Shown: positions 31,423 through 41,610 of the stretch, in pieces
Numbering within the stretch: position 1 is the first letter of the stretch
Layout: each line of letters starts with the position of its first letter
Assembly (NCBI GenBank): GCA_038245725.1
Contig: JBBRSD010000006.1
Coordinates: forward strand, 41,036-105,035
Source of the DNA: Coriobacteriia bacterium
GTDB lineage: Bacteria > Actinomycetota > Coriobacteriia > Anaerosomatales > JAAXUF01
Direction: 5' to 3'
Length of the DNA stretch: 64,000 bases
Position numbers and translations under genes: made by a program
The notes under the pieces: generated by a model
The model's input: the letters and a program-made list of their open reading frames with translations, nothing else
What the model was told of the DNA's origin: nothing
Databases searched by the model: none

Positions 31423-34400
31423 TCAGCCGCCGAGCATCGTGATGCGCACCGTGTGTTGCCGGCCGTCGTCGTCGAGCGCCACGCCGATTCCTTCGACGAG
31501 CAAGCCGTCGAGTTCGATGCGCGCCACGCCGCGGTTCACGCCTCGTGGGTTCTCCACCCGGATGCTATAGGTCGTCTCATCCCCGTGCCGGTACACCGCG
31601 TCGAAGCCGGCCCAGCGCTTGGGGATGCACGGATCGATCACCAGCAGCGTGCGCTCCTTCTCGGCGAGGAGGCGAATGCCGAGAAGAGAGCCCAGCGCCA
31701 CGCGGTAGAACCAGCTCGCAGCGCCGGTGTACCACGTCCACCCACCGCGTCCGGTGTGGGGTGGCGCGGCGTAGACGTCGGCGGCGACGACATAGGGTTC
31801 GACGACGTAGCGATCGGCGGCCTCGCGCGTCATCGAGTGGCTGATAGGGTTGATGAGATCGAGGAGCGAGTGCGCCTCGTCGCCGTCGCCACGCGTGAGG
31901 TAGGCGAGGATGACCCAGAGCGCTCCGTGCGTGTACTGGCCGCCGTTCTCGCGGACGCCGGGAACGTAGCCCTTGATGTAGCCGGGGTCGCGCGTGGTCT
32001 TGTCGAACGGCGGCGTGAGCAGCGCGATCAGGCCGTCTTCTCGGCGGACGAGCTTCTCGTCGACGCTGTCCAGAGCGATGGCGGCGCGGTCCGGGTCGCC
32101 GAGGCCGCTGATCGTCGCCCATGCCTGTGCGATCGCGTCGATACGGCACTCATCGGCGTCATGGGTGCCAAGTGGCGTGCCGTCGTCGAAGTATGCGCGG
32201 CGGTACCAGGAGCCGTCCCACGACTCCTCGGCAGCGGCGGCGAGGCGCTTGGCCCACACGCGGTAGTCCGAGGCGAGACCCGTGTCGCCGCGGCCTTCGA
32301 CGATGGGCGTGAACCGATCGAGCACGTAGCCGAGGAACCATGCGAGCCACACGCTCTCGCCGCGACCTTCGTGACCGACACGGTTCATGCCGTCGTTCCA
32401 GTCACCGCCACCGATAAGCGGCAGCCCGTGTGCGCCCGTCGGCCGGCCGGTCTCGATGGCAGCGAGGCAGTGCTCGTAGATGGTCGCGGCGCGCTCCGAG
32501 ACGGCTGGCTGCACGTAGGCGTCTTCGGCCTCGAGGGGTAGCGGCGGGCCTTCGATGTAGGCGACGTGCTCGTCAAGCACGCTCGCATCGCCGGTCGCGG
32601 CGAGGTACTCGGCGACGACGAGCGGCAGCCAGTGGCGATCGTCGGTGATGTGCGTGCGCACGCCTCGGCCGGAGTACGGCTGCCACCAGTGCAGCACGTC
32701 GCCCTCGGCGAACTGGTGATGGCTCGCCTCGACGATCTGCGCGCGCACGAGGTCTGGCCGCGCGATGAGCAGCGCCATGACGTCTTGCAGCTGGTCGCGG
32801 AAGCCGAACGCGCCGCTGCTCTGATACGTCGCGGAGCGCCCCCACAACCGGCACGCGGTGGCCTGGTAGAGCAGCTGGCCGTTGACCATGAGGTCGAGCT
32901 TCGGGTCGGGCGTGGTCACCTGAACCTTGCCGAGAAGATCGCGCCAGAATCCGGTGACGCTCGCGAGCGCGGCTTCGGCTGCTTCCGGTTCGCGGTAGCG
33001 AGCCACGAGCTCGCGCGCCTGCTCGAGCGTGGCCGTCTGGCCGAGGAAGAAGCTGATCTCCTCGGTGGCCCCGGGCGCGATCTCGAGCACGCACTGCATC
33101 GCGCCGCACGTGTCGTGGTAGCGACCGGACACTTCGCCGAGGTTCTTTCGGCGCATTGCGGCCGGGTCGCACGGCCGCCCGTTGCGGCCGACGAACTCGC
33201 TGCGGCTCGCGGTCCAGCTCGCGAGCGGGCGGTCGGTCGCGAGGAAACCGCAGCGTCCGGGGAAGTCGAGGTTGAAGTGGTTGTGGGCGGTGAGGATGTC
33301 GCTCTCGGCGTCGAACCAGGTCACCGCAAGCTGCTGAGCTCGAGAGCGAGAGTCGCCGAGCACCCACTCGACGAACTGCGTGACCGAAAGCGTGCGCGGC
33401 TCGTCACCGAGGTTGGTGAGCACGAGGCGGCAGACGCGAACGGGCTCGTCCTCGGCGACGAACCAGTCGAGCGTATGGCCGATCCCGTGCGTGTCGTGCT
33501 CGAAGCGCACGCGGCCCCGGCCGTGGCGAATAACGTACGGTTCCGCGGTTCGGACGGGAAGTGGAGTCGGGCTCCAGAACTCGCCGGTCGCCTCGTCTCG
33601 GATGAAGAAGGCCTCGCCGCTGCCGTCGCTGACGGGGTCGTTGTTCCAGGTGGTGATGCGGTTCTCGTGGCTGTTGAGCGCCCACGTGCAGCCCACGCCA
33701 GCTTCGCTCACCATGCAGCCGAACGTCGACGAGGCCAGCACGTCGATCCACGGCGCGGGCGTGGTCATCTCGTGATCGAGCACGATGACGTAGTCGCCGG
33801 TATCGAGGTCGAAGCCGCCGTAGCCGTTATCGAACGCGAGCGCGGGACGCGTGAACGGCCGCGTCGCAGGAGCTTGCGAAGAAGGCAAGGCGCTCGGGAC
33901 GAAGGCCTCAGGCAGCGAGAACGATCTCCCTCGGCGGTTGAGCTGCAACTCGATCGAGCCGAAGTCGCCATCGAGCGTGGCCCGTGCCACCGAGCTCAGC
34001 AGGTTGAGCACGTCGGGATGCATCTGGTCGATGCGCCGCAGGAAGACGCCGCCAGGTTTGTCGAGGAGCTGGAGCGCGTGCCCCGTACGCACGAGCAGCC
34101 GCAGACGGTCGTCGAGCTCGTCGGAGTAGCCGGTGGGCCGCGCATTCAGGATGACGAGGTCGGCGATGAGCCCCTTGTGACGCCAGTACTGGTGTGCGAG
34201 CAGAGCTTGCCGGACGAGCGGTGCGTGCTCGAGCTCCTCGACGCGAACGAGCAGGATCGGGAGATCGCCAGAGATGCCGATCGACCACAGCCCCGACATC
34301 TGCAGGCCGTTTTCAACGGTCGTCTTGGTCTTGAGCGGCGAGTGCGGGTCGGTCAGCAGCAGCCGCGACGCGAGCCGCTCGAGGATGACCGCTTCCTGCG

Positions 34401-37400
34401 GACTGATGCCGAGGTCGCGGAGTTCGAGCTGGGAAGCGGTCCAGGCGAGGTCGATCGCGCGTTGCGCGCTACGGGTGTCGTGGTACTTCTCGGAGAGGCG
34501 CACGGCGGTGTCGCGCTCGGCGGTGACGCCTGTGGCCAGCACGAGCCGCACGCTTTCGCCCGCAGGCAGCTCGATGATGCGGCGCAGCGAGCAGCACGGG
34601 TCGAGCACCGGTCCGCGCGTGCACGACAGCTCGCCGCCGTGCTCGACGGCGGCTGGATCGTCGACACCGCGCAGTCGGCCGAGGAACGCGGCGCGGTCGG
34701 TCTCGTAGCTGACGCCGCAGACCGGCTCCTGCTCGCACGAGAGCAGGTGGAGTCCCCAGTAGCGCGGCTCGTCGGAACTGCGGGGGCGACGCGTGAACAG
34801 CACGGTGTTGGTCTCGGCCAGCCACTCGGTCTCGACGAAGAGATTTGAGAACGACTTGTGCGCCTGATCGGAGGATTGTTTCGTCAACGCGATCTCGAAG
34901 TACGACGTGACCTCGAGCCGACGTGGCTTGAGGCCGTGGTTCGAGAACGTGACGCGCCTGATCTCGACGTCGTCTTCGGGCGAAACCGAGACCTCGACGT
35001 GGGTCTCGAGGCCTCCGTCGCGGCGGTGGAACTCGGCCTTGTCGGGCGCGAAGATGACGCTGTAGCGGTCGGGCCGCTTTGGGTACGGGTTGAACGGCGC
35101 CGAGAAGACCTCGTCGGTTTCGGTGTCGCGCACGTAGATGAACGTGCCCCAGCAGTCGCGCGTGACGTCCTCGCGGTAGCGGTTGACCGCGAGCCCGTTC
35201 CAGCGCGAGTACCCGCCACCACCGTTGGTGATCATCACCGAGTAGCGGCCGTTGGACAGGAAGTGGGTGGCGGGCACCGGCGTGTCGGCGGTGTTGTACG
35301 AGCGCGTGACCGGAGGCGGAAGCTCGCTCACCGAGCGCAAGTGCTTGACCTCCTCGGCATGTGGGGTGACGAGCTGTATGTGGCGCGGGACGCGCTCCTG
35401 CAGCAACAGCTCGGCCGAGCACACGATCGGGTCCTCGTGGAAGCGGTCGCGCATGCGGCCGTCGGTGAGCGCGTTGCCCAGCGCGACGAACGACATCCCC
35501 TGGTGATGCGCGAAGTAGCTCGCGACGACAGCGCGCCTCTGCCCTGCCGGCACGCGCCCGGCCGTGTAGTCGAGCGCCTCGTAGTAGCCGAAGCGGCCCT
35601 CCGCGCCTTCCGCCGAGAAGACCGTGAGGTCCGCGATGACTGCGTGCGCATCGACCGGCAGCGCGATGATCGCCGCGTACGGGGCGACCACGACGTCGTC
35701 GGACAGCCCGCGCTTGAGGCCGAGTCCGGGCACGCCGAACGCCTGGTACTGGTACGTGAGGTCCGCGTCTTTCGCGTTGAACGCCGATTCGCTCACGCCC
35801 CACGGCACGCCGCGCGCCGCACCGTAACTGATCTGCGCGCGCACCACGGTGCGGTACGTCTCCGAGAGGATCGTCTCGGGCCAGTCGTTCATCACGAGTA
35901 GCGGCATCAGGTACTCGAACATCGACGCGCTCCAGCTGACGAGCGCACGGCCGTCGTGCATGCGCGTCAGTGCCCGGCCCAGCCGGAACCAATGCTCCTG
36001 CCCGATGTCTCCCTTGGCGATCGCAAGGAAGCTCGCGAGGCGGCACTCGCTGGCGAGCAGGTCGTAGTAGCTGGGGTCGAGGCGACCCTCGTTGAGGTTG
36101 TAGCCGATGGAGAAGAGCTGACGGTGCGGGTCGAACAGCATCGAGAAGTCGGTGTGCTCCCACATCTCGCGAGCAATCAATGCGTCGAGTCGCAGCCGAG
36201 CGAGTTGCTCGATAGCGGCAGGTCGCACGCTGCGGATGCCCGCGGCGAGCTCAGCCGCCCATGTGCCGACCGTCGATGGTTCTGTCGCCAGCTTGTCGAG
36301 CATGGCGAGCGCCTCGCCCAGACCCCCGGCGATTCCGACGAGACTCGGCACTCGGTCGAGCAGCGGCAACAGCGCGTCTTGCGAGCGCACCTCGGCGGGG
36401 GCGTCGGCGATGAGATGTGCCCACGGCGTTAAATCGGCAAGCAGTATCTCGGACTCACGAATCGCAGAGAGCGAGTCGGCGACTGAGCACGCGAGGCGCT
36501 CCGTTGCGCTCGCGGGTATGCACGGCACGCCTTCAGCCGCAGGTATCGGGCAGGTGACGGCCGGTGTGTCGGCGAGCGCGGTCTCGACCTGGTCGGCGAG
36601 CGCGGAAAGCCTGCCCAGCAAGACGACCCAGGCGCCGAGATCGCAGGGCTGCTCGGCGACGTCGAGTGCGCGAAGAAGCGAGTCGAGCGCCTCGCGCAGG
36701 TCGCGTGTTTCGTGCGCGGCGGGCAGCGCGCTCTGCTCGGCGACGAGGTCTTCGAGCGCGAGGCGAACGGCGTCGCGCGCGCCGAGGATAAGCTGCGGAC
36801 CCACGAGTGAGGACTCGGACGCCTCGAGCAGCGCGATCCGCACGACGAGCAGGTGGCCGGCGAGGTTGCCTGAGTCGACGGTCGAGACGTAAGCGGGCCG
36901 CAGAGGCGCGAGGGTCTCGATGTTGTACCAGTTGTAGAAGTGACCGCGGAAGCGCTCGAGTCCCGCCATCGCGTTCAGCGTCGCCGAGACGCGCGTGGTC
37001 AGTCCGCGGACATTGATGTAGCCGAGATCGAACGCGTTGACGTAGGAGAGGAGCTGGAGGCCGATGTTCGTTGGCGATGTGCGCCACGCGACGACTCCGC
37101 CGGGATCCTCCTGGTAGTTGTCGGGCGCAAGGTGGTGGCCGTAGGCGGTCACGAAGGTCTCGAAGAACCGCCACGTCTTGCGCGCAACGCGGCGCAGGGA
37201 GTCTCTGTCGGCGGCGTCGAGGGGCTCTTGCGCGAGCACGGTCGCCGGTTGCGAGAGCCACCACGCGAACACCGGCCCGGCGAGCCATGATGCCGCCAGC
37301 GGAACCGCGACCGCGAGACGGACGAGCATGAGCAGCCAGGCCTTCTCGGTGGTCAGGCCGTCGAGGAAGGTGCCGAAGGTGCTCGCGACGAGCACCGCCA

Positions 37401-40266
37401 CCGCGACTGAGGCGTGAAGGCCCATCGCTCGCCAGAACGCCATCGGCGTGCGGCCCGCGCGCGCCTCGGCATCGGCGGCCGTCTCCCACTCGAGCAGATG
37501 CCTGTGCGAGACGGTCATGCGATACAGGGCTCGGGCGATCGCGTCGATCATGAGCCACGCCTGGTACGGCAGTGTCGATAGCGAAAGCGCACCGCGCACC
37601 GTGTCGGTCGCGAAGTCGCGGAGCACCGAGGGCGCGGTCGCCGCGAAGCTCACCGAGCGCGGGCGGAACAGCATCGAGTCGGCGAGCGAGAAGTACGCCG
37701 GGAAGAGCACCACCGCGATCATGAGGAGCGGCCACGAAACGGTCGCCTCGGGCACGAGCCACCAGCCGAGAAGGAACAGCACGAGCGTGGTCGGGGCTAC
37801 GAGCGAACGGCGCAGGTTGTCGACGATCTTCCAGCGATGTAGGCGCGAGAGCGGGTTTGGTGCCGGCACCCCATGCGCGTTGCTGACGCGCAAGCCGAGC
37901 CACGGCAACGTCTGCCAGTCACCGCGCACCCAGCGGTGAAGCCGAGATGACGCCGCGAGGTAGTTTGCGGGATAGTCGTCGAGCACCTCGACGTCGCTTG
38001 CCAGCGCAGTCCGCAGAAACGATCCCTCGATGAGGTCGTGGCTGAGCATCGAGTCCTCTTTGAAGCGCCCCTCGAGTACGCCTTCGAACACGTCGAGCTC
38101 GAAGATGCCCTTGCCGGTGAACGAGCCTTCGCCGAAGACGTCCTGATACGTGTCGGACACCGCGCCGGCATACGGATCGATGCCGGTCGATCCCGAGTAC
38201 AGTCTCGCGAAGCGGCTGCGCCCGGCCCCGGCGAGCGTCATCCCCACACGTGGCTGCACGAGACCGTAACCCTCGACGACGCGTGGCGTCCCCGGCTGCC
38301 AGCGCGCTCGGTTGAGCGGATGAGCGATCGTCGAGACGAGCTTGCGGCCACCGTCTCGGGGGAGGACCGTGTCGGCGTCGAGCGTAAGAACGAACGTGCA
38401 TGAGCGACGAAAAGCGGAGTCGCCCAGCTTGGTGGAGAACGTCGTGTCGGGGCGGCCTCGCATCTCGCGCGCGAGTTCGAGCAGCGCGCCGCGCTTGCGC
38501 TCCCAGCCCATCCAGAGGCCCTCGGACTCGTTAAGCCGTCGCGAACGCACGAGAAGGTGGAACGGTCGCACGCCATGCTCGGCCTCGTAGCGCTCGTTGA
38601 GCTCGGAGATGCCGCGCACCGCCGCCTCGAGCATCACGCCGTCATCAGAGCGCGTGGGATCGGGCGACGACTTCAAGTCGCCCAGTAGTGCGAAGGCCAG
38701 GTTCGGGTCGCGGTTCCCCAGGTAGGTGATCTCGAGGTGCTCGATGATCTCGCGTGTTGAAGCCACCGACGAGAAGAGGGCAGGGACAACGGCGAGCGTG
38801 CGATTCGACTCGTCGATGGGGAGGCGGAAGTCGAGCTTGGGAAGTCGCCTGGGCGGGAAGGCGACCGAGCCCAACCGGTTGACGACCACCAGCGCGAGCT
38901 CGCTGAGCGGCACCACTGCGGCCAAGGCAAGTACAGCTATCCGGTACGGACCCGCACCTTCGTTGTGGGCGTACAGAGACAGTCCCGCCAGGAGCAGCGC
39001 TGTCATTCCAGTGAGGGTGCCCCAATAGAACACGCCGTGGTGGCGGACGATCCGGTTGCGGTAGAAGCGCTCGCGTGGCCGCGGGCGATAACCGATGATC
39101 TTCTCCAGCTGGTAACGGCCTGGCTCGACGAGCCACCAGCCCACGTGTCCGCGCAGGTCATCGGTCGCATCGGCGGCGAGGGCCTCGCCCGCAAGCGCAA
39201 CGACCTTCTGCGCGACCTGGGCTTCCGAGTGGTGCGAGCGCCGGGCGATCTCCTCGAGCGCGTGGCGGTACCGGTCGCGGCTGTCGAAGTCCATGGCGCC
39301 GTACGTGCGGGCGGGATCTTCGCGCAATGCGGCCTCGACGTAGGAGACGGACTCGAAGAACTCGTGCCAGTCGAGTGCGTCGAGTAGCCGGATACTAGTG
39401 ATCGAGTTCGCGATGGAAACTTGGTTGGCGGCCTGCTCCTGCTGGGCCGCTGCGGCCGCCGTCTCCAGGACGATGCCGTCGGCGGACAGCCGGTGCTCGA
39501 GCCAAGCGTTGATCGTTTCGCCGCCCTGTTCGAGCTGGCCGAGCCGCTGCGAAAGCCTCACGAAGAACGTCGGTGAGACACCACGCGAGCCTGCGTCCAG
39601 CTCGCTCAGAAGGGCGGGCAGTTCGCCGGGCTCGCCTTGTGACGCGAGCACGAGCCGCTGAGCCCACGAATCAGCCGAGAACTCCGCGCGTTGCGAAACG
39701 ACCACCGCGCGCGACAGGCGCCGCAGGTTCTCCACGAGCCCGATACGCAGCATGATCGGGACGGCCCAGACCTCGCCGATCGTGAGCGGCTCGACGCGCT
39801 GGTAACCCTCGATGAAGGAGGCGAGGTACTCCTCGTCCAACCGTGAGTCCGTGTGCGCGATCAGAGCGAGGAGCGCCTCGTACACTCGCGGGAAGTCTCG
39901 GAAGGCGCCGTCGGTCAGGCGCGGAAGCTCGAGGCCGTAGTGCGAAGGGAGATCGGTGCGCACGAGCTGCACCTGCTCCTCGATCAGGTAGTAGTTGTCG
40001 AGGAGCCACTCGCCGGCAGGCGCCGCTGCGCCCCGCTCGCGCGTGCCGGCCGAAAGCTCGCTGCTATCGGCGGCGAGCGACGTGGCGGCCTTGTCGGCGA
40101 GCGCGGTGAGTGGGGAGACGCGTAGGTGGCCGCCGGTTGTGGACTTCTGCGCCGCGGACAGCGTCCGAGCCTCTACGGCCAGCCGCTCCGCCGAGAGGAT
40201 CTCAGCGCGCAGGGGCACGTCGCCCGGAGGGACTCTCGGCAGGGTTGAGCGGGTCGGGTCGGGCAT
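31423..40266 (-). CDS. Cyclic beta-1,2-glucan synthase (Cgs/NdvB/ChvB-like; GT84 + glucoamylase-like cyclase + GH94 phosphorylase)
   Basis: 2947 aa; WLLDNY, WMGWERKRG, TLDADT, SHDLIEG, RLHRWVRGDWQ, YDLLASE, WGVSES, QSSGAFGFRDQLQD, GDWNDGMN, ENGGQYTH, GGWTWYTGAA. Confidence 0.93.
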   Translation of the reverse strand: MPDPTRSTLPRVPPGDVPLRAEILSAERLAVEARTLSAAQKSTTGGHLRVSPLTALADKAATSLAADSSELSAGTRERGAAAPAGEWLLDNYYLIEEQVQLVRTDLPSHYGLELPRLTDGAFRDFPRVYEALLALIAHTDSRLDEEYLASFIEGYQRVEPLTIGEVWAVPIMLRIGLVENLRRLSRAVVVSQRAEFSADSWAQRLVLASQGEPGELPALLSELDAGSRGVSPTFFVRLSQRLGQLEQGGETINAWLEHRLSADGIVLETAAAAAQQEQAANQVSIANSITSIRLLDALDWHEFFESVSYVEAALREDPARTYGAMDFDSRDRYRHALEEIARRSHHSEAQVAQKVVALAGEALAADATDDLRGHVGWWLVEPGRYQLEKIIGYRPRPRERFYRNRIVRHHGVFYWGTLTGMTALLLAGLSLYAHNEGAGPYRIAVLALAAVVPLSELALVVVNRLGSVAFPPRRLPKLDFRLPIDESNRTLAVVPALFSSVASTREIIEHLEITYLGNRDPNLAFALLGDLKSSPDPTRSDDGVMLEAAVRGISELNERYEAEHGVRPFHLLVRSRRLNESEGLWMGWERKRGALLELAREMRGRPDTTFSTKLGDSAFRRSCTFVLTLDADTVLPRDGGRKLVSTIAHPLNRARWQPGTPRVVEGYGLVQPRVGMTLAGAGRSRFARLYSGSTGIDPYAGAVSDTYQDVFGEGSFTGKGIFELDVFEGVLEGRFKEDSMLSHDLIEGSFLRTALASDVEVLDDYPANYLAASSRLHRWVRGDWQTLPWLGLRVSNAHGVPAPNPLSRLHRWKIVDNLRRSLVAPTTLVLFLLGWWLVPEATVSWPLLMIAVVLFPAYFSLADSMLFRPRSVSFAATAPSVLRDFATDTVRGALSLSTLPYQAWLMIDAIARALYRMTVSHRHLLEWETAADAEARAGRTPMAFWRAMGLHASVAVAVLVASTFGTFLDGLTTEKAWLLMLVRLAVAVPLAASWLAGPVFAWWLSQPATVLAQEPLDAADRDSLRRVARKTWRFFETFVTAYGHHLAPDNYQEDPGGVVAWRTSPTNIGLQLLSYVNAFDLGYINVRGLTTRVSATLNAMAGLERFRGHFYNWYNIETLAPLRPAYVSTVDSGNLAGHLLVVRIALLEASESSLVGPQLILGARDAVRLALEDLVAEQSALPAAHETRDLREALDSLLRALDVAEQPCDLGAWVVLLGRLSALADQVETALADTPAVTCPIPAAEGVPCIPASATERLACSVADSLSAIRESEILLADLTPWAHLIADAPAEVRSQDALLPLLDRVPSLVGIAGGLGEALAMLDKLATEPSTVGTWAAELAAGIRSVRPAAIEQLARLRLDALIAREMWEHTDFSMLFDPHRQLFSIGYNLNEGRLDPSYYDLLASECRLASFLAIAKGDIGQEHWFRLGRALTRMHDGRALVSWSASMFEYLMPLLVMNDWPETILSETYRTVVRAQISYGAARGVPWGVSESAFNAKDADLTYQYQAFGVPGLGLKRGLSDDVVVAPYAAIIALPVDAHAVIADLTVFSAEGAEGRFGYYEALDYTAGRVPAGQRRAVVASYFAHHQGMSFVALGNALTDGRMRDRFHEDPIVCSAELLLQERVPRHIQLVTPHAEEVKHLRSVSELPPPVTRSYNTADTPVPATHFLSNGRYSVMITNGGGGYSRWNGLAVNRYREDVTRDCWGTFIYVRDTETDEVFSAPFNPYPKRPDRYSVIFAPDKAEFHRRDGGLETHVEVSVSPEDDVEIRRVTFSNHGLKPRRLEVTSYFEIALTKQSSDQAHKSFSNLFVETEWLAETNTVLFTRRPRSSDEPRYWGLHLLSCEQEPVCGVSYETDRAAFLGRLRGVDDPAAVEHGGELSCTRGPVLDPCCSLRRIIELPAGESVRLVLATGVTAERDTAVRLSEKYHDTRSAQRAIDLAWTASQLELRDLGISPQEAVILERLASRLLLTDPHSPLKTKTTVENGLQMSGLWSIGISGDLPILLVRVEELEHAPLVRQALLAHQYWRHKGLIADLVILNARPTGYSDELDDRLRLLVRTGHALQLLDKPGGVFLRRIDQMHPDVLNLLSSVARATLDGDFGSIELQLNRRGRSFSLPEAFVPSALPSSQAPATRPFTRPALAFDNGYGGFDLDTGDYVIVLDHEMTTPAPWIDVLASSTFGCMVSEAGVGCTWALNSHENRITTWNNDPVSDGSGEAFFIRDEATGEFWSPTPLPVRTAEPYVIRHGRGRVRFEHDTHGIGHTLDWFVAEDEPVRVCRLVLTNLGDEPRTLSVTQFVEWVLGDSRSRAQQLAVTWFDAESDILTAHNHFNLDFPGRCGFLATDRPLASWTASRSEFVGRNGRPCDPAAMRRKNLGEVSGRYHDTCGAMQCVLEIAPGATEEISFFLGQTATLEQARELVARYREPEAAEAALASVTGFWRDLLGKVQVTTPDPKLDLMVNGQLLYQATACRLWGRSATYQSSGAFGFRDQLQDVMALLIARPDLVRAQIVEASHHQFAEGDVLHWWQPYSGRGVRTHITDDRHWLPLVVAEYLAATGDASVLDEHVAYIEGPPLPLEAEDAYVQPAVSERAATIYEHCLAAIETGRPTGAHGLPLIGGGDWNDGMNRVGHEGRGESVWLAWFLGYVLDRFTPIVEGRGDTGLASDYRVWAKRLAAAAEESWDGSWYRRAYFDDGTPLGTHDADECRIDAIAQAWATISGLGDPDRAAIALDSVDEKLVRREDGLIALLTPPFDKTTRDPGYIKGYVPGVRENGGQYTHGALWVILAYLTRGDGDEAHSLLDLINPISHSMTREAADRYVVEPYVVAADVYAAPPHTGRGGWTWYTGAASWFYRVALGSLLGIRLLAEKERTLLVIDPCIPKRWAGFDAVYRHGDETTYSIRVENPRGVNRGVARIELDGLLVEGIGVALDDDGRQHTVRITMLGG

Positions 40267-40432: not shown

Positions 40433-41131
40433 GTGAAGAAGGCAACAATCTGGATCGTCGTGGCCGTAGCGGTCGTTACCATGGCGCTTCTGGCGTTCAG
40501 GCCCGCCGCCGGCGGCGTGAAGACCGTCGACGCCGCGGGACTCATCGCGGCCCAATCGAAGGGTGCACAACTCATCGACGTGCGCTCGAAGGGCGAGTAC
40601 GACCTCGGGCATATCGCCGGAGCGGTCAACGTGCCGCTCGATACTCTCCAGGTGGCGGCTGCGAACTGGGATCGCAACGCGACCTATGTCGTCTACTGCG
40701 CCTCAGGCGTCCGCTCATCCCAGGCTGTGCAGATTATGACCTCGATGGGGTTCAAGAACATCGACCACTTCGCGAAGGGCGTAAACGAGGGCTGGACTGC
40801 CCCGCTTGAGTCCTCTGATGGCTCGTCTGGCTCGAGCACCGTCCAGACGTCGGGCAAGCCCGTGCTGATCGAGTTCTACACCGATTCTTGACCCTCGTGC
40901 CAGAAGATGAAGCCTCTGGTCGAGGGGCTCGAGAAGTCGTACGCCGGCAAGGTTGAGTTCAGGCGGTTGAACATTGAGAGCGATCAGGCGGCGGTCAAAC
41001 TCGCCGACACGATGGGAGTGCAATACGTTCCGACGTTCGTGTTCGTGAACTCCAACGGTGTCGTGGCAAAGAACGTGGTTGGCGAGATGACCCAGGATGC
41101 GCTTTCGTCGGGAGTGAGTTCGCTCAAGTAG
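40433..41131 (+). CDS. Membrane-anchored rhodanese-thioredoxin fusion, predicted selenoprotein (Sec at UGA 40889-40891, UxxC)
   Basis: GTG start with GAGGAG RBS; N-terminal TM; rhodanese LIDVRS..EY..GHIAGAVNVP..VVYCASGVRS; Ser/Gly linker; Trx fold GKPVLIEFYTDS-TGA-PSCQKMKP...GVQYVPTFVF continuing in the same frame to TAG 41131 (232 aa). Confidence 0.85.
40911..40929 (+). promoter_or_regulatory. Putative bacterial SECIS hairpin
   Basis: AGCCTCT-GGTCG-AGGGGCT 7-bp stem with a G-initiated loop, 26 nt after the UGA. Confidence 0.65.
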
Positions 41132-41251
41132 CAATCAGCGCCATTCGCGCTCATCGCCGAATATCGCCCGAACGGCCTCTATGAGAGGCCGTTCGTCGTT
41201 CTCCACGGCAAAACCGGTGGCGCTGCGCGGCCATGAGCGTATATTCGATGT

Positions 41252-41590
41252 AGGGCGCTTTGCTCGGCGTCCACACCCGTCGGTCAGGAGGTCTCAACTG
41301 CAGGTGGAAACAGCAACAGAGCAGGAAGACCGGGCCGAAGTGGCAGATGAAGGTCTCAGGTACCGAGTGCCGAACGACTAGCACGATGCCGGAGAGCCGG
41401 GCATAAGCCCTTGGAACGCCGAGGATGAGACCGCAGGGACACAGCCGGTCGAGATTCCTCGCTACTAGCCCTTTAGAAGGGCCCCTTAGGCGGTGCGAAG
41501 GCCACCTCGGTCACAGGAGGACAACCCGGCGGAATGCGCGCCGGTCAGCAGAGGAGCGGATCCCGAATCGGGACCCGCTCCTTCTTATTG
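41252..41590 (+). ncRNA. Structured ~340-nt noncoding RNA, Ms1-like candidate
   Basis: -10 TATATT at 41240-41245, nested long-range stems, terminal GC hairpin 41552-41582 with T-rich tail, no credible ORF; motifs AAGACC..GCCGAAG and CTAGCACG recalled from Ms1. Confidence 0.6.
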
Positions 41591-41610
41591 GATGCTGTGG
41601 GCAGTGAAGG

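Follow-up and report, generated by a model that had tools for sequence, protein, structure and literature searches.

The window analysed here, the whole 64,000-nucleotide stretch taken from one contig of a Coriobacteriia bacterium, contains an intergenic gap (41132-41610) with no ORF of at least 80 aa fully inside it, in keeping with the preliminary description, which had seen no credible ORF there. The gap lies between a plus-strand rhodanese-thioredoxin gene (40433-41131) and, on the other side, a convergent glnK-amtB operon. The rhodanese-thioredoxin fusion has an in-frame TGA at 40889 within a UxxC motif, likely a selenocysteine codon, and the window's genome encodes a tRNA-Sec. Farther upstream, a minus-strand ORF of 2947 aa (31423-40266) is, judging from its motifs, presumably a cyclic beta-1,2-glucan synthase of GH94 type; an NCBIfam search with its first 1089 aa returned no match.

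The sequence words earlier reported for the gap are all present (TATATT at 41240, AGACC at 41327, GGTCT at 41352, GACTAGCACG at 41376 and the nested partners), as are the hairpin and T-rich tail that had been placed at its 3' end. Table 1 lists the features of the locus, in which the conserved core of the RNA spans 41334-41511. The first hairpin, of a kind seen again at loci of the same family, would set the upstream mRNA apart from the RNA gene. Transcription is predicted to start near 41252, and homologs show a promoter motif followed by a hairpin whose sequence varies. The last hairpin is the probable 3' end of the RNA and possibly also ends the convergent glnK-amtB operon. When the locus was scanned for consensus promoters and terminators, nothing was found. 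Within the core, a possible pairing partner for the GC of the junction strand at 41399..41406 is the invariant GC at 41495-41496, a putative contact that never varies.

Table 1. Features of the RNA gene and the adjoining gap (positions within the window)
Feature	Position	Strand	Remarks
Terminator-like hairpin of the upstream rhodanese/Sec-thioredoxin gene	41170..41202	+	GAACGGCC/GGCCGTTC at 41170/41187
-10-like element GCGTATATT	41236..41245	+	Loose (G/C)GTA-type motif in order-type loci
5' hairpin GGGCGC/GCGTCC	41253..41272	+	
Shine-Dalgarno-like leader motifs	41283..41307	+	AGGAGG 41286, AGGTGG 41302; start codon and frame not conserved
P1, 5' strand	41334..41344	+	Partner is 41501-41511
Junction strand AGAUGAA (family consensus AGANNAA)	41345..41351	+	Conserved
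P2 arm	41352..41398	+	Base stem covaries; body variable, 19 to over 120 nt; contains CTAGCACG
Junction strand GGGCAUAA (family GGCANAAG)	41399..41406	+	Conserved
P3 arm	41407..41491	+	41407-41414 with 41484-41491; closes second junction with P4 and P5
P4	41421-41460	+	Internal loop UGM/RAGA; inside P3 arm
Hairpin P5	41468-41482	+	Inside P3 arm
Junction strand GGUGCGAAG (family CGRWGCRAAG)	41492..41500	+	Best-conserved word of the family
P1, 3' strand	41501..41511	+	Partner of 41334-41344
Intrinsic-terminator-like hairpin and T-rich tail	41552..41590	+	Hairpin 41552-41582

Taken alone, the locus folds only slightly better than shuffled sequences (z -1.45; core z -1.7), which is within chance, and generic scans came back empty; the evidence comes from comparing relatives. 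The single long irregular hairpin that had been proposed does not hold: its 12 testable pairs are 69.7% paired as against 70.4% after shuffling, with 488 of 500 shuffles scoring as high, and CCGGCG at 41526 pairs locally with CGCCGG at 41539 in the predicted fold. Collecting homologs and testing them for covariation did reveal conserved relatives with covarying stems. From 83 cores we obtained 59 distinct sequences, 58 of which were aligned (alignment A2 omits locus L060, which scores 119 bits). The top mutual-information pairs in these 58 homologs are mostly Watson-Crick and trace P1, P2 and a P3 that encloses P4 and P5. The fold derived from this covariation has 95.0% of cells paired compared with 85.8% when shuffled, a score biased towards the fold, which was read off the same alignment, and related sequences inflate shuffle tests. 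Compensatory change is found in 27 of 45 pairs, none of 500 shuffles matches any of the measures, and pairing drops to 34-53% when the registers of the fold are slid. By stem, P1 has 12 pairs (97.1% paired, seven with compensatory change) and the base of P2 has eight (93.6% paired, six compensatory); P3, P4a, P4b and P5 all show compensatory changes.

Sequences from other classes, which were not used in deriving the fold, keep P1 and P3 in different letters. A cross-class alignment of 31 sequences is 92.5% paired, with a covariation score of 0.609 compared with 0.287 for shuffled alignments, and the nine P1 pairs of this set are 97.5% paired. The word CGRWGCRAAG is exact in 84 of 94 order-type members and 9 of 18 members from other classes, the remainder being one- or two-base variants, although both this consensus and GGCANAAG are partly imposed by the search patterns. 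Core length ranges from 159 to 297 nt, mostly through variation in P2, and no pseudoknot was found in the fold. The conservation far exceeds chance, and the locus almost certainly holds a real, conserved structured RNA element.

By BLAST, 33 genomes out of 61 carry the element, counting that of the window. A strict pattern scan in which each GTDB species was represented by a single genome returned 54 loci, mostly labelled Coriobacteriia or Actinobacteria, with one Anaerosomatales, one Slackia and one Aeromicrobium label; seven Eubacteriales-labelled loci have cores identical to those in the window's own order. Covariance models, which were run within Actinomycetota, extended this range. A model of the 3' half matched 124 of 146 genomes of the order (Anaerosomatales-like), including 87 of the 98 that are at least 90% complete, nearly always in single copy, and none of 83 genomes from other families of Coriobacteriia. 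Across 41 genomes of another order the full-core model gave one chance-level match (17.5 bits, 53 nt). Applied to 151 genomes sampled from the phylum, the 3'-half model picked up five more carriers, all in other classes, in each of which P1 and P3 are perfect or nearly so and the three junction strands recur. Iterated models matched 14 of the 151 (window's genome counted), every one of the five genomes of a small class and, at chance level in one case, 19 of the 48 genomes of another; some of the matched genomes were also training sequences, and one unpublished genome (G148) counts only as a non-carrier in the phylum-sample tallies. Two genomes of one genus in another class have two copies each. 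These other carrier classes would appear to be deep-branching, anaerobic candidate classes. Every carrier genome is smaller than 3 Mb, and weak matches of model R2 in larger genomes (E 0.003-0.05) were discarded, having disappeared with the full-core model. A pattern scan of metagenomes returned at least 119 loci, and of 80 that were scored, 15 are true members (68-125 bits) while the non-members reach at most 23.5 bits. A mobile element was considered and rejected, as none of 10 viral pattern matches has the fold; the RNA was not found in phage and plasmid collections and is chromosomal.

The signals around the core suggest a gene of its own. Within the order, a -10-like motif, albeit of a loose pattern, lies a median of 95 nt 5' of the core in 78 of 81 loci compared with 25 of 81 on the reverse strand, and a terminator-like hairpin occurs within 140 nt of the core in 69 of 81. 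In other classes, a TATAAT-like box precedes the RNA in 20 of 23 loci and a U-tract directly follows P1 in 22 of 23, so that P1 itself may end the transcript there. These signals would give a discrete transcript of about 340 nt at our locus and of about 190-260 nt in the other classes. A small ORF behind the Shine-Dalgarno (SD)-like motif was rejected, start codons, frames and ORF lengths not being conserved.

Neighbouring genes differ between lineages. At 61 loci, we found a Sec-thioredoxin gene upstream in 35 (by a strict motif), glnK downstream in 31 and a tRNA-Ala in seven, while the neighbours in other classes are different (trp T-box/VanZ, tsaE/UDG, pyrR, an amidase, an rRNA operon), and further translation-related genes (tsaE/tsaB, a CCA-adding-type enzyme) adjoin the RNA elsewhere. 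Since its neighbours change in this way, the RNA is not tied to one gene and behaves as an independent gene. Some of these neighbourhoods deserve mention in their own right. T-box leaders stand before trp genes divergent from the RNA (L155, L157 and L158, at about 980-1308 on the minus strand). In one family (L301/L368, L379, L380, L382), a strongly divergent 16S rRNA follows the RNA at a distance of 240-550 nt; because the 5' end of this rRNA departs at several positions from the usual 27F primer site, the organisms may escape amplicon surveys. That the RNA belongs to an rRNA leader was considered and dismissed, given that the neighbouring operons carry promoter-like and boxA-like signals of their own (four loci examined); a boxA-like word is present in 8 of 83 order-type leaders and 6 of 17 from other classes.

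Comparison with known RNAs places this one apart. Rfam 15 gives no family match at gathering level, Ms1 included, and at E ≤ 10 there are chance matches to the terminal hairpin only. The window's genome has separate RNase P, SRP and tmRNA genes over cut-off elsewhere. A divergent tmRNA at the locus was therefore rejected: the Rfam model finds the tmRNA, which ARAGORN had missed, elsewhere beside smpB. That tmRNA (L095, G000:C5:185707-186035; 87.9 bits) is itself somewhat atypical. The only match to the 6S model in this genome is on another contig (L036, G000:C2:264487-264660), at 42.7 bits (E 2.5e-7) and just below the 46.4 cut-off, and all five of the other carriers searched have a 6S match, four of them over cut-off. 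The minimal form of our RNA resembles 6S (RF00013) in size and in having its own promoter- and terminator-like signals, but it does not have the rod-with-bubble fold, and a separate 6S-like gene exists. Actinobacteria have been described as having no identified 6S RNA (PMC9130861, PMC11077062); 6S matches occur in Anaerosomatales-type and other deep-branching actinobacterial genomes with up to 98 bits (L358-L362).

Close in kind is raiA, an orphan RNA of about 200 nt in anaerobes including Coriobacteriia, which is multi-stemmed, independently transcribed and rich in invariant linker bases, with optional arms (PMC10861870). Our RNA likewise sets invariant, unpaired, purine-rich strands beside arms of 19 to over 120 nt, but consensus and topology differ. 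The raiA gene of the window's genome lies elsewhere (L357, G000:C5:148672-148914; 162.9 bits), RF03072 has no match at the locus, and the full-core model R3 does not match the raiA gene; this genome thus has two orphan structured RNAs, raiA and the RNA described here. CoRP, a 516-nt RNA reported only in Corynebacterium, is intergenic, lies beside tRNA genes and was missed by Ms1 and 6S searches (PMC11077062), and by that description it shares with our RNA a lineage-restricted range, an intergenic position, tRNA neighbours and invisibility to such searches. OLE, ROOL, GOLLD and the smtA/'Soda Lake' motif have a conserved complex fold as well; our RNA is smaller than these and has no linked partner gene or Rfam match. 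What lies downstream (a convergent glnK, a tRNA that carries its own promoter-like box, or else unrelated genes) does not fit a cis-acting riboswitch or leader, whereas the covarying multi-stem fold, invariant linkers, own signals and absence of an ORF are those of an orphan structured ncRNA of the raiA/OLE kind.

The preliminary description had offered either an Ms1 homolog or a new large ncRNA. The second half of this proposal is borne out by the conservation, the covariation and the lack of an Rfam match, and the first half is not. RF02566, the Ms1 model, recovers real Ms1 at 235 and 147 bits and finds no match at the locus even at E ≤ 10. A profile HMM of eight Ms1 sequences reached a best E of 2.7 against 112 family members, with nothing in the reverse search; models R1, R2 and R3 do not match real Ms1, and R3 scores at most 9.3 bits across 10 real Ms1 loci. 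The Ms1 sequences in these comparisons are of the Mycobacterium type. The Ms1 words cited in that description do exist, real Ms1 genes containing GCCGGAAGAGAAGG and CAGCACGG, yet here they fall at positions that are unconserved or differently paired: a single one of the 94 order-type members and none of the 18 from other classes contain CTAGCACG, and none of the 112 has GCCGGAAGAGAAGG. Ms1 loci are defined by HAD-IB hydrolase or oxidoreductase neighbours (PMC9130861, whose Table 4 has no Coriobacteriia among its entries); HAD-IB hydrolase synteny is absent at our locus, and no HAD family was found among 58 neighbouring ORFs in other classes. Both RNAs are actinobacterial and intergenic, of 230-340 nt, with a 5' hairpin and a 3' terminator, and in both the GGCANAAG word comes just before a long arm, a likeness of seven bases that was noticed post hoc and to which we give little weight. 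Ms1 folds into a long hairpin, whose central bubble is required to bind RNA polymerase (RNAP), and two short end hairpins (PMC4191392), while our RNA has the end hairpins but two nested multi-helix junctions at its centre. The ranges differ too, the carriers being of other classes and keeping a 6S-like RNA. As far as sequence and predicted fold can tell, homology to Ms1 is not supported.

We favour the interpretation, with a probability of roughly one half, that this is a free-standing, trans-acting RNA whose junction core would serve as the recognition site for a conserved protein with its gene at another locus. Invariant unpaired strands next to arms that resize freely suggest that a tertiary core matters and the periphery does not, as for raiA (PMC10861870), and with no conserved target gene, reading frame or expression platform, a trans-acting scaffold or sponge for protein is the best reading. 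The RNA would be transcribed independently as a stable molecule and act in trans; a compact tertiary core, predicted to form from its three invariant junction strands, would be bound by a conserved protein in a scaffold or sponge role, and P2 and the distal part of P4 would be dispensable peripheral arms. In the order, the SD-like leader would give the RNA a further contact, either with the 30S subunit or with another protein that binds purines. Two candidate partners were rejected. A CsrA sponge was dropped, csrA not being found in the window's genome, and Hfq, prompted by two loci beside an Hfq-domain gene, was not found in any of the five other carriers searched. The gene at those two loci encodes a protein of about 200 aa with a C-terminal Hfq domain (PF17209, over cut-off) and is divergent from a copy of the RNA (L317:1802-2407, L318:684-1295). 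Hfq is unusual in Actinomycetota.

An abundant stationary-phase RNA that binds the RNAP core, like Ms1 or CoRP, whether as a distant Ms1 relative or an independent invention, is the main alternative, though an unlikely one. The RNA is free-standing, of similar size and bounded by a 5' hairpin and 3' terminator, real Ms1 has GGCA(G/A/C)AAG just before its long arm as here, and the two ranges are non-overlapping in the genomes searched, where Ms1 matches occur only in Mycobacterium-type genomes of another class; moreover, several unrelated RNAP-binding RNAs are found in Actinobacteria (PMC11077062). Against these, every comparison with Ms1 by model, profile or synteny failed, the centre is a branched junction of invariant sequence in place of the bubbled long hairpin (PMC4191392), and carriers retain a separate 6S-like RNA.

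We consider it improbable that the RNA associates with ribosomes or other translation machinery, say by docking on the 30S subunit through its SD-like leader in dormancy. Such an association would account for a strong anti-SD complement that has no reading frame behind it in 80 of 83 order-type loci (controls 5 and 24; mean leader duplex with the anti-SD -13.0 vs -7.2 kcal/mol) and for the several translation-related neighbours (tRNA-Ala at 7/61, tsaE/tsaB, the CCA-adding-type enzyme, rRNA operons). However, the SD-like motif is present in only 4 of 17 other-class loci, the adjacent rRNA operons appear to have promoters of their own, and a visual likeness of the three junction strands to helices 5-7 of 23S rRNA failed when tested, at 15.9 bits, a score exceeded at 1198 or more genome positions.

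Aptamers and small ribozymes typically surround a helical junction with invariant, purine-rich strands, and a junction that forms a ligand-binding pocket or catalytic centre, acting in trans with no need of a main protein partner, would yield the identical conservation pattern. The RNA has no conserved co-oriented downstream gene or expression platform, nor any match to a riboswitch or ribozyme in Rfam, and we hold this possibility more doubtful still. Finally, a small-peptide gene, or an element acting in cis on a flanking mRNA (a selenoprotein 3' element or a glnK antisense), is scarcely credible: Sec-thioredoxin and glnK do flank many loci (35/61 and 31/61), but a terminator-like hairpin and a promoter-like motif intervene, neighbours are unrelated in other classes, and for a peptide neither start, frame nor ORF length is conserved.

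Whatever its partner, the RNA would constitute a new class of structured RNA outside Rfam, which does not imply that its mechanism is new. Full-text searches of the literature gave no description of it; the main text of PMC11109978 does not mention Coriobacteria, and that of a bioRxiv survey (10.64898/2026.10.21.760802) does not mention the carrier taxa, although the cluster database or supplements of the latter may hold the motif unnamed. The order Anaerosomatales has cultured members (PMC9686372), and the minimal core of about 160-220 nt is suitable for cryo-EM or probing.

A trans-acting RNA with a protein-bound junction core thus remains our preferred reading. Few bacterial RNAs are both widespread and highly structured, and the ones solved so far (RNase P, tmRNA, SRP, 6S) run basic processes of the cell. 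Being near-universal in one order and recurring in other classes with an invariant core, this RNA is old and under selection. If it were to bind RNAP, it would bear on the origin of Ms1 and on the proposal of one abundant RNAP-binding RNA per species. Tentatively, and as an idea we think possible though doubtful, it may be a housekeeping RNA of the Actinomycetota ancestor, retained only in deep-branching anaerobic classes and controlling RNA polymerase or the ribosome in a manner unlike 6S, Ms1 or raiA; it would have been lost in the gut Coriobacteriales and in the aerobic actinobacteria, where Ms1 may have replaced it or descended from it.
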